A stretch of DNA of 46,237 bases, from positions 1-46,237 of the IMG/VR virus record IMGVR_UViG_3300031372_000011, one strand, 5' to 3'. The notes under the pieces were generated by a model. That model saw only the letters and a list, made by a program, of their open reading frames with translations. It did no database searches and had not been told where the DNA came from. Made by a program: the position numbers and the translations under genes. This document shows, one piece after another, positions 40,354 to 44,400 of the stretch. Within the stretch, counting starts at the first letter, position 1; each line of letters begins with the position of its first letter. The stretch comes from a virus.

Positions 40354-41073
40354 ATGACGAATGTCATGAGTCCGGCTAATCTTCTACTTATGGTAGAAAA
40401 CGAATCAAAGTATCAAGACTTCGCAGATCGTCTAAACTCCCTAATGAGAGAAGAGGGGGTGGACGTGAATGCACTTAAAGATATCAGCGGGGTCTCATAT
40501 GAGATGGCCCGTCGCTATACGTTAGGCACAGCAAAGCCCAGGGATGAAAAGCTGGAGAAAATTGCGAAGCACTTCGGGGTAACAATGCCGTTCCTTGACT
40601 ATGGTGTCGGGGAGGCACTGCCTGTGGGTCATGATGCGGAAAAGCTCGAGCAGCTGGAAGTGTATGCCAGCGCAGGCCGCAGTGGTTATATAAACCGTGA
40701 TTTCCCTGAAGTAATCAGATCTATAGAAATTCCGAAAGAGAGGATCTACGAACTTTTTGGCAGAAAAAACCTCGACGGGATCAGGATTATGAACGTTGAT
40801 GGCGACAGCATGATGCCAACGTTAAACCCAAGGGATCTACTGTTTATCGATTCCAAGGTCGACCATTTCAATGGCGATGGCGTGTACGTTTTCTGCTTTG
40901 AAGATGCTACCTTCGTCAAGCGCCTTCAGCGTGTAAAAGGCCGACGCCTGGCGGTTATTTCCGATAACGATCGCTACCCACCGTTTACCATTGAAGAAAA
41001 TGAGATGTTCGAACTCTACATTTTTGGAAAACTCATCAAACAATTACCCATGAAATTTGTAGATTTCGCCTGA
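40354..41073 (+). CDS. cI: CI-type repressor (HTH plus S24 LexA-like autopeptidase domain)
   Basis: The protein has an N-terminal HTH and a C-terminal DGDSMMPTL (catalytic Ser) and FVKRLQR (catalytic Lys). Confidence 0.9.
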   Translation: MTNVMSPANLLLMVENESKYQDFADRLNSLMREEGVDVNALKDISGVSYEMARRYTLGTAKPRDEKLEKIAKHFGVTMPFLDYGVGEALPVGHDAEKLEQLEVYASAGRSGYINRDFPEVIRSIEIPKERIYELFGRKNLDGIRIMNVDGDSMMPTLNPRDLLFIDSKVDHFNGDGVYVFCFEDATFVKRLQRVKGRRLAVISDNDRYPPFTIEENEMFELYIFGKLIKQLPMKFVDFA

Positions 41074-41131: not shown

Positions 41132-41186
41132 GTTGTCTAAATTCAATTAGTTAAAATCTACTTTCAATATTTTCTACTTTTTGTTG

Positions 41187-41215
41187 TTGACGAATTCTAC
41201 ATTAGGTAGCATATT
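41187..41215 (+). promoter_or_regulatory. PL-like early promoter: -35 TTGACG, 17-nt spacer containing the operator CTAC-ATTAG-GTAG, -10 CATATT
   Basis: Read directly from the sequence, upstream of the plus-strand early operon. Confidence 0.55.
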
Positions 41216-41261
41216 TAACCCATCGAAGGCGCACCGCCAACAACTGAGCAGCGAGGTAGTT

Positions 41262-41588
41262 ATGGCACTTGACCACGGCATCCTGAACCTACCCCTGAAC
41301 AAGCGCGGCCTGGGCAACATCGATGCAGAGATCGACCGGTTCAACAAGCAACAGCGCGAAGCGAAAGCCGAGGCCATGTGGGTGGCGAAAGACAACTACA
41401 AGACCAACAAGGCAGCAGCACTGGAAGCCCTTAAGCAGATCGATAGCACCCTGCTCAAGGCTCAGGCCGACAAGCGCAACATGAAGCCTCGGGAGTTGCT
41501 AAAGCTGGTCAAAGAAATGTGTAACGACAAGCCGAAGGTGGCCCTGAAGGTCATTCAGGATTTGTTTATCGCCAAAGCTGACGAGTAG
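41262..41588 (+). CDS. Hypothetical early protein (108 aa, Lys/Ala-rich helical)
   Basis: The ATG at 41262 is preceded by GAGGT. The track start at 41181 lies inside the promoter. Confidence 0.55.
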   Translation: MALDHGILNLPLNKRGLGNIDAEIDRFNKQQREAKAEAMWVAKDNYKTNKAAALEALKQIDSTLLKAQADKRNMKPRELLKLVKEMCNDKPKVALKVIQDLFIAKADE

Positions 41589-41595
41589 GAACGCG

Positions 41596-41862
41596 ATGAT
41601 GAAAGCTTACCAGTGCACAACAGACCTTTTTGCAGACGTCGATCTGGGCATCAAAAATGCTGTCCTGATGTGCGTTGAAGGCCCAGCAGCAGCAACCAAA
41701 AAGCTGTGTGGCCAACTGGCTAAATCCTTCGTCATCGCCGGGTATGAAGAAGATGGCGCAAAGGCTGGTGATCTGGTGGTGTTCTTCGTCGTTAAAAAAT
41801 CCGGGGTGTCTGCGTTCGTGGACGCGGCAACCCAGAAAGGAGGCGCTCGTGTTGAAGCATAA
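41596..41862 (+). CDS. Hypothetical protein (88 aa)
   Basis: An ORF in the early operon. Confidence 0.5.
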   Translation: MMKAYQCTTDLFADVDLGIKNAVLMCVEGPAAATKKLCGQLAKSFVIAGYEEDGAKAGDLVVFFVVKKSGVSAFVDAATQKGGARVEA

Positions 41863-42034
41863 AATGTGGACCTTCGAAATGAAGGGTGATCAGTTCTTCT
41901 TCACCGAGTTTGTTGACGGTCGCGAAGTAGCGACGCATGGCCCGGTGGATAAGGCAGCGGCCTCAGTATTGGCAGTCAGCATCATCCAAGGCTTTCAACC
42001 CCCTGCTCTGTTTGTAGAGGTTGAAAGTGAGTAA
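41849..42034 (+). CDS. Hypothetical protein (~61 aa)
   Basis: The GTG at 41849 is preceded by AGGAGG. An alternative ATG lies at 41864. The longer track ORF from 41675 overlaps the previous gene. Confidence 0.4.
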   Translation: MLKHKMWTFEMKGDQFFFTEFVDGREVATHGPVDKAAASVLAVSIIQGFQPPALFVEVESE

Positions 42035-42722
42035 GGGCGGCTGCCGGGCGACGGTGATCAGCATGCTGATCGGGCTTGTGTTCTTCGCCACCCTAGCTGT
42101 GGCTGTAGTGATCGATACCGCCGGGTAACCGGCCCATAACGGCCTGCTCATTCGCCCTTTTAATTAATTTTGGAAGCGGTGGGGGTAGCACTCATGAGTG
42201 AGCAGACCGTTGTGGTGAAGCGTTGGAGAGACGTTTGTATGCGGATTCAAGCGGGAGGCCGTTCGCAGTCGGAAGACTCGACCCCCGTTCGGCAATAGGA
42301 CGTAGGTACCAGCCACTACGGTGAGCCCAGCACCACAAATCTCCTTGCCGGGGAGTTCAACCGGCATGACAGCTCGGAAGAGACGAGCACACAACGATAA
42401 GAGCTCTGCACCGGATATGTGGCAAGCACCTGTGTAACTCCCGCTGGCGGCGTGGTAGTGAGGTCGCAGAGCCGACGTTACGGGCAACGCGGCGCAAGGT
42501 GGTCAAAGGCAGTGCTCTTTTCGTTGTGGCATCCGGTGATAGGCGGGCTACCTCTCCGCCCGGGGGTTCAACTCCTCCCACCACACACCTTATCCCCTAC
42601 CTTGGGATAAACCGGGCCCAGGCCGCCGGATAAACGTAACCGGCACCCAACTGAAACGGTTTTTAGGGGACGCGGTCTGTTTTACAGCGTGACGAAAGAA
42701 CCGGAGATAAAGCCGTTTCAGT

Positions 42723-42891
42723 TGTGGTGAATGCACAGGCTGATGTGCAAAGAGTAAGGGTGACGGGGTTCCTAGGCCCGGTGAACCGAGCGATTTGGTA
42801 AGGCCGATCTGGTGAAAGCGCCCTCAAAGTGGGTAGAGGCAGGTTCGATTCCTGCTACCAATGCCGGAGATCAGCGCCGGTCACCACAACC
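42723..42891 (+). ncRNA. tRNA-like element 2 (expanded, ~169 nt)
   Basis: The 5' part reads TGTGGTG-AA-[TGCAC AGGCTGAT GTGCA]. An inner minihelix follows: ATTTGGTA...[CCTC AAAGTGGGTA GAGG]-[GCAGG TTCGATT CCTGC]-TACCAAT. Then comes the hairpin GCCGG-N9-CCGGT, and the element closes with CACCACA-A-CC. Confidence 0.4.
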
Positions 42892-43064
42892 TAAATCTGA
42901 ATGTTGCTTCCTCGCTTTGCTGATAGCAGCGCATTCGCCGGATAGAGTAACCGGCACCCAACAGGAAAGAGCATTGGGACCGTGAGCGTGAAACGCTAAG
43001 GGCCACCCACACCAGGGAAAAGAGCAACGATAACCCGTTGCAGTGGTCCCAGTGCTCTCTCCGT

Positions 43065-43193
43065 TGCGGTGTAGTTCAGCGGTAGAACGGGCTATGGAGT
43101 GCTGGCCAGCGTGGGGATCAAAGAGGTTTGCAAACCTCCTGGTACCCGGTCCAAAAAGTGCAGTCGTCGGTTCGAATCCGACCACCTCAACCA
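43065..43193 (+). ncRNA. tRNA-like element 3 (129 nt) with canonical D arm, T arm and encoded CCA but a 77-nt central region
   Basis: The acceptor is TGCGGTG/CACCTCA (6 of 7 pairs). The 5' side reads TA-GTTC-AGCGGTA-GAAC. The 3' side reads GTCGG-TTCGAAT-CCGAC-CACCTCA-A-CCA. The central imperfect hairpin at 43113-43147 has the loop TTTGCAAA. Confidence 0.5.
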
Positions 43194-43470
43194 ACTAAAT
43201 GCTGTGTGTAGCTTTGGCGGCCTCGCCTAACTTCTACTTAATAGAGGTGACGACAATGTTCATGGGCCTGGCCGCCCTTTTTACACATCAGGTGGCGTAC
43301 TGTCCGGACCCTTAAACCTGGATAGTCTAAGAAAAACCGGAACGGTGCGCCACCTGGTGTGTGGAGAAATATGGCAGGCGATGAGTGGTATCCCTGCCAA
43401 TTAATATCAACCTATTTTCTGCGAAATATTGCCGAGTCTTGGCAGGGAGTTGTTTTGCCGAAAATCAGTG

Positions 43471-44400
43471 ATGGAGAATATCGTGAGCCATTTAACTTTC
43501 AAAAATATCCTTATTTATCGCCTGTCTCGGGATGTTGATTTATCGCCTGAAACTATTGAAACCCACCTGGCACCGTTCGCCCTTACACCATGTAGCAGCC
43601 AGGATATGGCGAAAGCTGGCTGGATTTCCCCCATGGGAAAGCGCGGAACGTCGCTATTTCATGCCGTTAACGGCCAGGTAATTCTTTGCGCTCGCAAAGA
43701 AGAAAAAATTCTTCCTGCTTCGGTAATTAAAGAAGAAGTGCAGAAGCAGATCGAAAAAATCGAAGGCGAACAGCATCGCAAACTGAAAAAGACGGAGCGG
43801 GACCAACTGAAAGATGAGGCTTTGCAGAGCCTGCTACCTCGCGCGTTTAGCCGCTTTACTAGTGTATTCATGTGGATCGATACCGTTAACGGCCTGATTG
43901 TGGTTGATTCGCCAAGCTCTAAACGTGCCGAAGATGTCTTGGCCTTGCTACGTAAGAGCCTTGGCTCGTTGCCGGTCACCCCTTTAACGATGGAGAGCCC
44001 TATAGAGCTGACTTTAACCGAGTGGGTTAGATCTGGAAAGGCGCCAGCCGGTTTCTTGCTGCAGGATGAGGCTCAACTCAAAGCCATTCTGGAAGAAGGC
44101 GGGACCATTAGCTGCAAAAAACAAGACCTGTGCGGCGATGAGGTGGCAACAAACATTGAGGCCGGAAAGCTTGTTACCACGCTGGCCCTTGAGTGGAAGG
44201 AACGGATCAGCTTTTCCATTACTGACACTGGAAGCCTCAAGAAGCTGAAGTTTTGCGATCAGTTGCTCGAGCAGAATGATGATATTGACCGTGAAGATTT
44301 TGCCATGCGCTTCGATGCTGATGTTGTTTTGATGACCGGGGAGCTATCTGCACTTATAGCCAACCTGACCGAAGTTCTTGGCGGGGAGGTGACTTCCTGA
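43471..44400 (+). CDS. rdgC: Recombination-associated protein RdgC homolog
   Basis: The protein is collinear with E. coli RdgC as I remember it, through segments such as FKNxxxYRLSR, [84 protein letters not shown] and [13 protein letters not shown]. The start is either ATG 43471 or GTG 43483 (GGAGA lies upstream of the GTG). Confidence 0.88.

Follow-up and report, generated by a model that had tools for sequence, protein, structure and literature searches.

The window, i.e., the whole stretch of 46,237 nucleotides (nt) analysed here (IMG/VR record IMGVR_UViG_3300031372_000011), is the complete circular genome of a temperate phage, recorded with a terminal repeat. Between positions 42120 and 43370 it has about 1.2 kb without a credible open reading frame (ORF), and the hairpin motif considered here lies inside this untranslated stretch, within an array of four units. 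Each unit, folded separately, showed the same order: a short GC hairpin, here called H0; one base followed by CA(C/T)AAC or CCCAAC; a long imperfect helix, P1, with CAAC:GTTG as its last pairs; GTTGYGGTG; and a body shaped like a transfer RNA (tRNA), closed by TGTGGTG ... CACCACA. H0 is a selected hairpin with free sequence at the unit boundary, and with moderate confidence we regard it as the hairpin that caps the 3′ end of the preceding unit and marks its boundary without terminating transcription, beside a zone of crossover and putative cleavage. The features of the locus are as follows.

40354-41073: cI, with a repressor match in PHROG
42120-42133, plus strand: H0-1, GCCGG-GTAA-CCGGC, followed by C-CATAAC (42134-42140); repeat family D1, identical in the related locus L030
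42135-42215, plus strand: P1-1, a long helix closed by CATAAC:GTTGTG (fold, z -3.0)
42211-42337, plus strand: tRNA-shaped body 1, with a TGTGGTG ... CACCACA closing stem and a divergent interior (from the sequence; 99.5% block in common with L030)
42347-42365, plus strand: trailer hairpin of unit 1, GCCGG-GGAGTTCAA-CCGGC, not the H0 of unit 2 (fold; repeat family D4)
42372-42395, plus strand: H0-2, GCTCG-GAAGAGA-CGAGC (42372-42388), followed by A-CACAAC, the start of P1-2 (fold, alignment)
42390-42528, plus strand: P1-2, with an AAGAGC/GCTCTT base, closed by CACAAC:GTTGTG (fold; repeat family D3)
42525-42585, plus strand: tRNA-shaped body 2, with no D arm, one central hairpin, a canonical T arm (GGGGG-TTCAACT-CCTCC) and CACCACA
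42593-42624, plus strand: trailer of unit 2, a spacer hairpin and a mini-hairpin (GGC-CCAG-GCC) abutting H0-3 (fold)
42625-42651, plus strand: H0-3, GCCGG-ATAAACGTAA-CCGGC (42625-42644), followed by A-CCCAAC, whose CAAC is the base of P1-3
42646-42726, plus strand: P1-3, a long helix (fold)
42723-42888, plus strand: tRNA-shaped body 3, TGTGGTG ... CACCACA
42733-42748, plus strand: D-like hairpin of body 3, GCAC-AGGCTGAT-GTGC
42794-42863, plus strand: variable insert of body 3 with a nested tRNA-like element (tRNA model, 29.6 bits)
42863-42881, plus strand: T-like hairpin of body 3, GCCGG-AGATCAGCG-CCGGT
42937-42962, plus strand: H0-4, GCCGG-ATAGAGTAA-CCGGC (42937-42955), followed by A-CCCAAC
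42957-43068, plus strand: P1-4, with an AAGAGCA/TGCTCTC base (fold, z -2.9)
43065-43193, plus strand: tRNA-shaped body 4, with a canonical acceptor, D and T arms and an encoded A-CCA end (Rfam tRNA, 38.8 bits)
43216-43366, plus strand: long terminator-like hairpin (GGCGGCC...GGCCGCC) ending in CCGCCC-TTTTT (fold)
43471-44400: rdgC, phage-borne, phrog_724

The initial annotation had pointed to two near-identical 26-mers in otherwise diverged surroundings. Both are present (GCCGGATAAACGTAACCGGCACCCAAC at 42625-42651 and GCCGGATAGAGTAACCGGCACCCAAC at 42937-42962) and exceed chance, as the 26-mer pattern, with three mismatches allowed, has an expectation of 0.00 in shuffles; GCCGG-N8-11-CCGGC occurs four times vs 0.33 expected, three of these in the array region. 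The repeat finder returned the junction pieces as the longest direct repeats of an otherwise diverged 1.4 kb (families D1 and D2), namely GTAACCGGC-N-C-N-N-AAC three times and CAGTGCTCT..CGTTG.GG twice. Each 26-mer is directly followed by a long helix (P1-3 and P1-4 in the folds) and preceded, as described, by CACCACA (42579-42585 and 42882-42888) and spacer hairpins. A “looser third copy” at 42347-42370, however, turned out to be the trailer hairpin of unit 1 and not an equivalent element. By position and homology, the true equivalent in unit 2 is GCTCG-GAAGAGA-CGAGC-ACACAAC (42372-42395), with which the proposed AGCTC/GAGCT helix at 42371-42405 clashes, and a further copy, GCCGG-GTAA-CCGGC-CCATAAC at 42120-42140, had been overlooked.

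The motif is in fact two things joined, H0 and ACNCAAC, the latter being the 5′ foot of the next P1; the GTTG(TG) partner of this foot stands immediately before the body 5′ strand and overlaps it. Outside the body core, no stretch is more conserved than CACAAC (1.3-1.7 bits per position), which pairs with GTTGTG at the far end of P1. The ACCCAAC tail had been described as single-stranded, but in all four folds its CAAC forms pairs with the GTTG that closes the long helix, and homologous units covary accordingly: the two bases before TGTGGTG covary with the 5′ CACAAC strand in 72 of 81 units (e.g., CACAAG with CT, CACAGG with CC, CACAATC with GAT and CACATC with GA), whereas only 47 of 78 units allow these two bases to pair with those that follow the 3′ CACCACA. 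Therefore, positions -2 and -1 belong to P1, and the acceptor-like stem, TGTGGTG/CACCACA, is 7 bp long; it is perfect in units 1 and 3, has 5/7 pairs in unit 2 and reads TGCGGTG/CACCTCA with one G.U in unit 4. The TGTG at +1 to +4 can pair with either the 5′ CACA or the 3′ CACA, both options having been kept in evolution, and this dual pairing could clamp the acceptor 5′ strand for as long as its 3′ partner is still to be transcribed. A generic helix finder run over all loci was too permissive, returning 2909 P1-like helices, and its output was taken up only in filtered form. A T-arm-like element, GGTTCGA(C/A/T)TCC, is found near the tip of many P1 helices (L089, L092, L106, L116, L133, L202), and from their sequence the long-hairpin modules may themselves be degenerate tRNA derivatives.

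Across the family, the hairpin is defined by its place and its pairing. Among 79 unique units, 34 (~43%) have a GC hairpin of at least 5 bp ending no more than 3 nt from the P1 start, compared with 3-15 at shifted positions and 9 (maximum 16) in shuffles, an approximately 3-4-fold enrichment. The stems are diverse (21 different stems and 19 loops), and every H0 loop holds a GNRA-type tetranucleotide (GTAA, GCAA, GAAA, GAGA or GGAA), in many cases on its 3′ side. The 14 sequences of the 7-nt-loop class, aligned without gaps, were paired in all 70 cells (100%), with changes on both sides in four of the five pairs; none of 500 shuffles reached the observed value, and slid controls paired at 40% at most. 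The particular GCCGG..GTAA sequence, whose selective retention had been proposed, was found in only 13 of 121 homologous units. Units without it can have another hairpin at the same spot, 0-3 nt before CACAAC, such as the following.

CCTGG-GAAGAGA-CCAGG
GCTCC-ACGAAAC-GGAGC
TGCCAC-ACGAAAC-GTGGCA
GCCTG-GAAAGA-CAGGC
TGACTGG-CGTAA-CCAGTCA
GCCGG-TGGAAGC-CCGGC

As the pairing is selected while the sequence is free, the motif of the initial annotation is one allele of H0. Its suggestion of a binding or processing site is plausible still, given a selected structure at the unit boundary, although not in the form of a 26-nt sequence selectively retained together with a loose tail.

In many other units the position is taken by an intrinsic terminator, i.e., a hairpin with a T-run, 0-10 nt before CACAAC. 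The window contains both arrangements, with H0 in 4/4 units and a terminator at a fifth helix: at once 3′ of the terminator-like hairpin that follows unit 4 come ACACATC and a fifth, near-perfect P1-type helix (89 nt, z -7.0), so that the terminator occupies the H0 position, and other loci have a like arrangement. H0-1 to H0-4 themselves are followed by (A/C)C(A/C)(C/T)AAC and have no T-runs, and the terminator scan detected none at these four hairpins. The 5′ strand of the fifth helix starts inside the T-run, and the hairpin/helix pair (43216-43370) lies just upstream of rdgC, whose expression it may gate; such pairs of a terminator hairpin and a P1-type helix recur elsewhere, e.g., in L033, L091 and L103.

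The inheritance of H0 can be followed in related loci. L030 has three blocks in common with the window, 42203-42404 at 99.5%, 42508-42744 at 97.9% and 42959-43500 at 97.8% identity, with unrelated sequence between them; GTTGTGG, CACAAC with the first P1 bases, and the P1 3′ strand contain the mosaic breakpoints. At unit 4, the same P1 is preceded in L030 by a different trailer and a different H0 (GCTGGCT-GGAA-GGTCAGC, then C-CTCAAC), and the 97.8% identity to the window begins at CAAC-AGGAAAGAGC. Among nine pairs of units with identical H0, which are not independent of each other, the upstream flank was more alike than the downstream flank in 9/9; in two of them the upstream side was near-identical and the downstream side unrelated, the reverse case being absent. 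Each GTAA-type allele also comes with its own upstream spacer: the mini GNRA hairpin with ATAAACGTAA, GAGGAAGAGGCNTG with AACCGTAA, and TTGCTGATAGCAG with ATAGAGTAA. The mini-hairpin beside ATAAACGTAA covaries in homologues (GGGC/GCC vs GGTC/GAC) and has GNRA loops. Terminal copies of H0 without a P1 after them exist in L001, L092, L224, L228 and L223 (carried by a Klebsiella phage, L092, and Leminorella, Serratia and Stenotrophomonas prophages), and in L068 and L010 an H0 stands directly before genuine tRNAs. The identity of the two copies in the window is thus better explained by a hairpin that travels with its upstream unit through recombination.

Recombination could also be the whole story, if H0 and the CACAAC junction were a DNA repeat without an RNA function, copied and homogenised by exchange between modules. 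The breakpoints between the window and L030 lie exactly in the conserved connectors, the longest repeats of the region are junction pieces, and the same H0 allele is found in unrelated phages of Salmonella, Klebsiella, Serratia, Leminorella and Stenotrophomonas, all of which would fit. We nevertheless give this explanation little credence, as pure DNA homology would conserve sequence and not pairing, while the stems vary in sequence yet always pair with compensatory changes; furthermore, the crossovers lie downstream of H0, in CACAAC/P1 and not in H0, and the enrichment of hairpins at one fixed position points to selection on structure.

The same linkage data bear on the possibility that H0 is a 5′ structural domain of the downstream unit, with a GNRA-type loop that would dock in the minor groove of P1 or of the body, stack at the H0/P1/acceptor junction and aid folding. 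The GNRA-type tetranucleotide in all H0 loops, the distance of 0-3 nt between H0 and P1 and the conserved non-canonical positions near the P1 base are compatible with such docking, as is the situation in Salmonella phage Sasha and in L052, where the primary transcript includes H0 directly before its single unit. Yet the H0 alleles segregate with upstream and not with downstream flanks, the same P1 and body occur with different H0s, H0 can be replaced by a terminator or be absent, and the terminal copies have no P1 to dock to. Docking is therefore improbable in our view, if somewhat less so than a mere DNA repeat.

The third alternative concerns the transcription of the array. Downstream of cI follow its terminator and a sigma-70-like promoter (41187-41215), four small ORFs without a family match and then the array, which hence occupies the leftward early operon between the small ORFs and the phage rdgC. 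A 30-amino-acid hydrophobic ORF (42028-42129, …VISMLIGLVFFATLAVAVVIDTAG) has its stop codon inside the GTAA loop of H0-1; therefore, the coding region and the RNA array abut without a gap. A reading of rdgC as a host gene, with the array as integration scars (attR or tRNA remnants), was ruled out, as the record is a complete circular phage and rdgC is phage-borne. In such an early operon, H0, P1 and GTTGTGG might form an antitermination element of the nut/put or rrn type, with H0 as boxB-like, the P1 3′ strand (TGCTCTTT) as boxA-like and GTTGTGG as boxC-like parts. It would load Nus factors or a phage antiterminator, so that polymerase crosses the 1.2-kb untranslated array and its terminators without Rho termination, and distant acceptor strands would be helped to pair. 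The order hairpin - TGCTCTTT - GTTGTGG resembles the boxB-boxA-boxC order of rrn leaders, and loops such as GAAGA resemble lambda boxB. H0/P1 further resembles lambda nut and rrn antitermination sites in that the hairpin is short and its GNRA-like loop rich in purines, that TGCTCTT(T/A) and GT-rich stretches are present, and that the element lies in an early operon with terminators after it. The array follows cI and a promoter (in phage mEp460 it directly follows cI), terminators inside and after arrays need read-through to reach rdgC, and GCTCT is present in 46 of 82 P1 3′ strands. However, the boxA-like stretch lies 3′ of the hairpin, is base-paired in a helix and varies freely together with its partner without being preferentially conserved. 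Neither strand is favoured (GCTCT is kept with a wobble partner eight times and the reverse three times; G.U pairs number 95 vs 100), and P1-1, P1-3 and P1-5 of the window do not have the stretch. Searches of the ORFs at 41181-42034, the first of the operon, against PHROG gave no match, and no N-like antiterminator cognate to such a site was found. The cassette is also found outside early operons: in Sasha it is flanked by capsid and tail genes, and other copies neighbour tRNA genes. As neither a strand-specific constraint nor an N-like protein was found, antitermination appears unlikely, on a par with the DNA repeat.

What places H0 in the 3′ slot of the preceding unit is the combination of selected pairing, free sequence, fixed place, equivalence to a terminator, upstream inheritance and terminal copies. 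As a 3′ end-cap, H0 would act on an array made as a single transcript from the early promoter at ~41190. Host RNases would cut at the P1/acceptor junction, RNase P at the acceptor and RNase III or RNase E in or beside P1, and H0 would then cap and protect the new 3′ end of the upstream product. It would be a stand-in for the intrinsic terminator hairpin of other arrays, with no U-tract, so that polymerase goes on into the next unit, and the CACAAC/P1/GTTGTGG connectors would double as homology for unit swaps between phages.

Several points weigh against an end-cap. In Sasha, a strong promoter lies ~50 nt upstream of H0 and there is no unit but the one that follows, so that H0 could cap just a short leader and no preceding tRNA-shaped RNA, and L052 likewise has its H0 after a promoter. 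A plain exonuclease block needs neither conserved GNRA-type loops (GTAA, GAAA, GAGA, GGAA) nor an abutting mini-hairpin, features that may indicate a specific contact, either tertiary or with a protein. H0 is also dispensable, since over half of the units do not have a clean one, and the interdependence of the nine pairs limits the linkage test. A bolder and rather tentative possibility, less probable than the end-cap but ahead of the three alternatives, is that the array is a plug-and-play RNA expression system. H0 or a terminator, the CACAAC:GTTGTG clamp and P1 would then form a universal adaptor with three jobs: to shield the acceptor 5′ strand until its 3′ partner is made, to steer host RNases so that they excise the cargo, and to provide homology for trading cargo across Proteobacteria. 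Genuine tRNAs, tRNA mimics without an anticodon or other RNAs might serve as cargo, and a specific host factor would recognise H0, a hairpin with a GNRA-type loop, which would then be more than a passive cap.

The four bodies differ in their interiors. Two regions passed the gathering threshold of the tRNA family RF00005 (29 bits), 43065-43190 with 38.8 bits and 42794-42863 with 29.6 bits, and body 2 gave a weak tRNA-Sec-like match (16.8 bits). In unit 4 the D arm is GTTC-AGCGGTA-GAAC and the T arm GTCGG-TTCGAAT-CCGAC, with discriminator A and an encoded CCA. A 72-nt insert replaces the simple anticodon arm and contains a GCA-anticodon-like hairpin, the 7-nt loop of which, TTGCAAA, resembles the Cys GCA anticodon loop. 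Unit 4 thus has no normal anticodon arm with an assignable anticodon, and ARAGORN reported it as tRNA-??? with a 4-base anticodon; the unit may be either a mimic or a tRNA that has acquired expansion segments. A D-like loop (AGGCTGAT) and a T-like loop (AGATCAGCR) that are mutually complementary (GCTGAT/ATCAGC) were found in unit 3 only, units 1, 2 and 4 having other interiors. Both loops, aGGCTGAT (42737-42744) and agATCAGCg (42868-42876), are nearly invariant across the family, which was collected with a pattern that fixes the D loop, and their 6-nt complementarity may reflect a kissing contact of Watson-Crick pairs that replaces the tRNA elbow. The trailers after CACCACA (42586-42611 in the window; L001, L089, L092, L180) share N-CC(A/T)-AA(T/C)CC and a hairpin with the loop C-TACCT-N, in which TACCT is complementary to AGGTA of the common P1 5′ strand (ACAGGTAAGAGC).

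BLAST searches of the array against deposited phages returned only short islands, which fell where Salmonella phage Sasha, a Klebsiella phage, a Pseudomonas phage and a cyanophage have gaps in their annotation. In Sasha the order is mini-hairpin, GCCGG hairpin, ACACAAC, P1, GTTGTGGTG, body and CACCACAAC, and the module, in the gap that follows the capsid gene, is flanked by a 10/12 promoter and a strong terminator. The search suggested in the initial annotation, GCCGG-N9-10-CCGGCACNCAAC, matched 83 viral contigs, of which ~15 were true and most were chance matches in GC-rich coding DNA. In genome contigs the same motif gave at least 120 matches, mostly by chance, as expected for 17 fixed bases in 596 Gb, with a few genuine copies in prophages. 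The initial annotation would have dismissed the motif if related phages lacked it or if it were a generic repeat scattered through host genomes; neither is the case.

With the body-core pattern TGTGGTGAAT-N4-AGGCTGAT, at least 120 viral contigs were recovered. One representative unit matched 171 phage records, mostly unannotated or labelled “hypothetical protein”, among them mEp460, cdtI, Stx2c phages, SfV, the plp region of phage P1, phiV10, ST64B and HK633, as well as 1530 of 5426 complete E. coli genomes, where its annotation is “none”. In mEp460 this unit directly follows cI. There (L208, 3375-3928) two “hypothetical protein” coding sequences, mEp460_036 and mEp460_037, were annotated right after cI on the strand opposite the RNA module, and they are probably false gene calls. 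Matches to isrK and C4 antisense RNA lie ~2 kb from the module in mEp460-type phages, and co-oriented genuine tRNA genes stand beside the module in 12 of 60 loci.

At gathering score, Rfam gave no match over the whole window. Permissive scans detected only tRNA in the array, and tRNA, isrK, C4 and weak chance-level matches in 26 related loci; neither the array nor these loci matched STnc100, GOLLD or ROOL. For STnc100 (RF02076), the E cut-off was 10 in the window array and 0.1 in 11 further loci, and 15 loci were scanned at gathering score. Weak, sub-threshold matches to permuted transfer-messenger RNA (~26 bits, E ~0.08) lie beside modules in L105 (958-1012), L117 (1003-1110) and L146 (324-430). 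Exact-sequence searches of the literature with the D-like and T-like cores returned no paper, and keyword searches none that describes the module. The module family is thus one without an Rfam entry or a covering paper.

Its closest counterparts are phage arrays of long hairpins and tRNA-shaped RNAs, in the upl/plp region of phage P1 and in the immunity regions of mEp460, SfV and cdtI. Like the window, these have CACAAC, a P1 helix with an AAGAGCA/TGCTCTT base and GTTGTGGTG ... CACCACA, a tandem layout and an association with tRNA genes; like unit 3, they have the D-like loop AGGCTGAT and the T-like loop AGATCAGCR. Unlike them, the window array combines four different body types. Polycistronic phage tRNA clusters (RF00005) are similar in that unit 4 has tRNA arms and an encoded CCA and that real tRNAs occur in the same arrays, some preceded by H0. 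In contrast to tRNAs, the module bodies have no normal anticodon arm (inserts of 72 nt or larger, or none), and the spacers are long structured helices where tRNA clusters have short leaders.

For H0 itself, the nearest comparison is with intrinsic terminators and with the 3′ stabiliser hairpins left by RNase III, as at the phage T7 early mRNA sites. H0 is likewise a GC-rich hairpin of 5-7 bp at the 3′ edge of an RNA unit, true terminators fill its slot elsewhere, and, as at the T7-type sites, a long imperfect helix adjoins the hairpin, here as a candidate cleavage site. H0 differs in having no U-tract and in its GNRA-type loop motifs, and cleavage at this locus is a candidate event only. The prophage small RNAs STnc100 and PasD (bioRxiv 10.64898/2026.05.13.724894) are also prophage-borne, structured and widespread in pathogenic E. 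coli, but STnc100 differs in having no covariance-model match in the window array or the 26 related loci.

What is new here is that H0 is resolved as a separate, swappable, terminator-equivalent element that travels with the upstream unit. Three points matter for the family: a terminator can take the place of H0, H0 is inherited together with the unit before it, and the crossovers lie in the CACAAC/P1 connectors. Unit boundaries are needed for annotating the module RNAs, for building covariance models and for designing knock-outs or end mapping, and the analysis also corrects likely false ORF calls in module regions. As candidate roles, the tRNA-shaped products may be decoys for tRNA-targeting defences, enzyme sponges or scaffolds for variable RNA.

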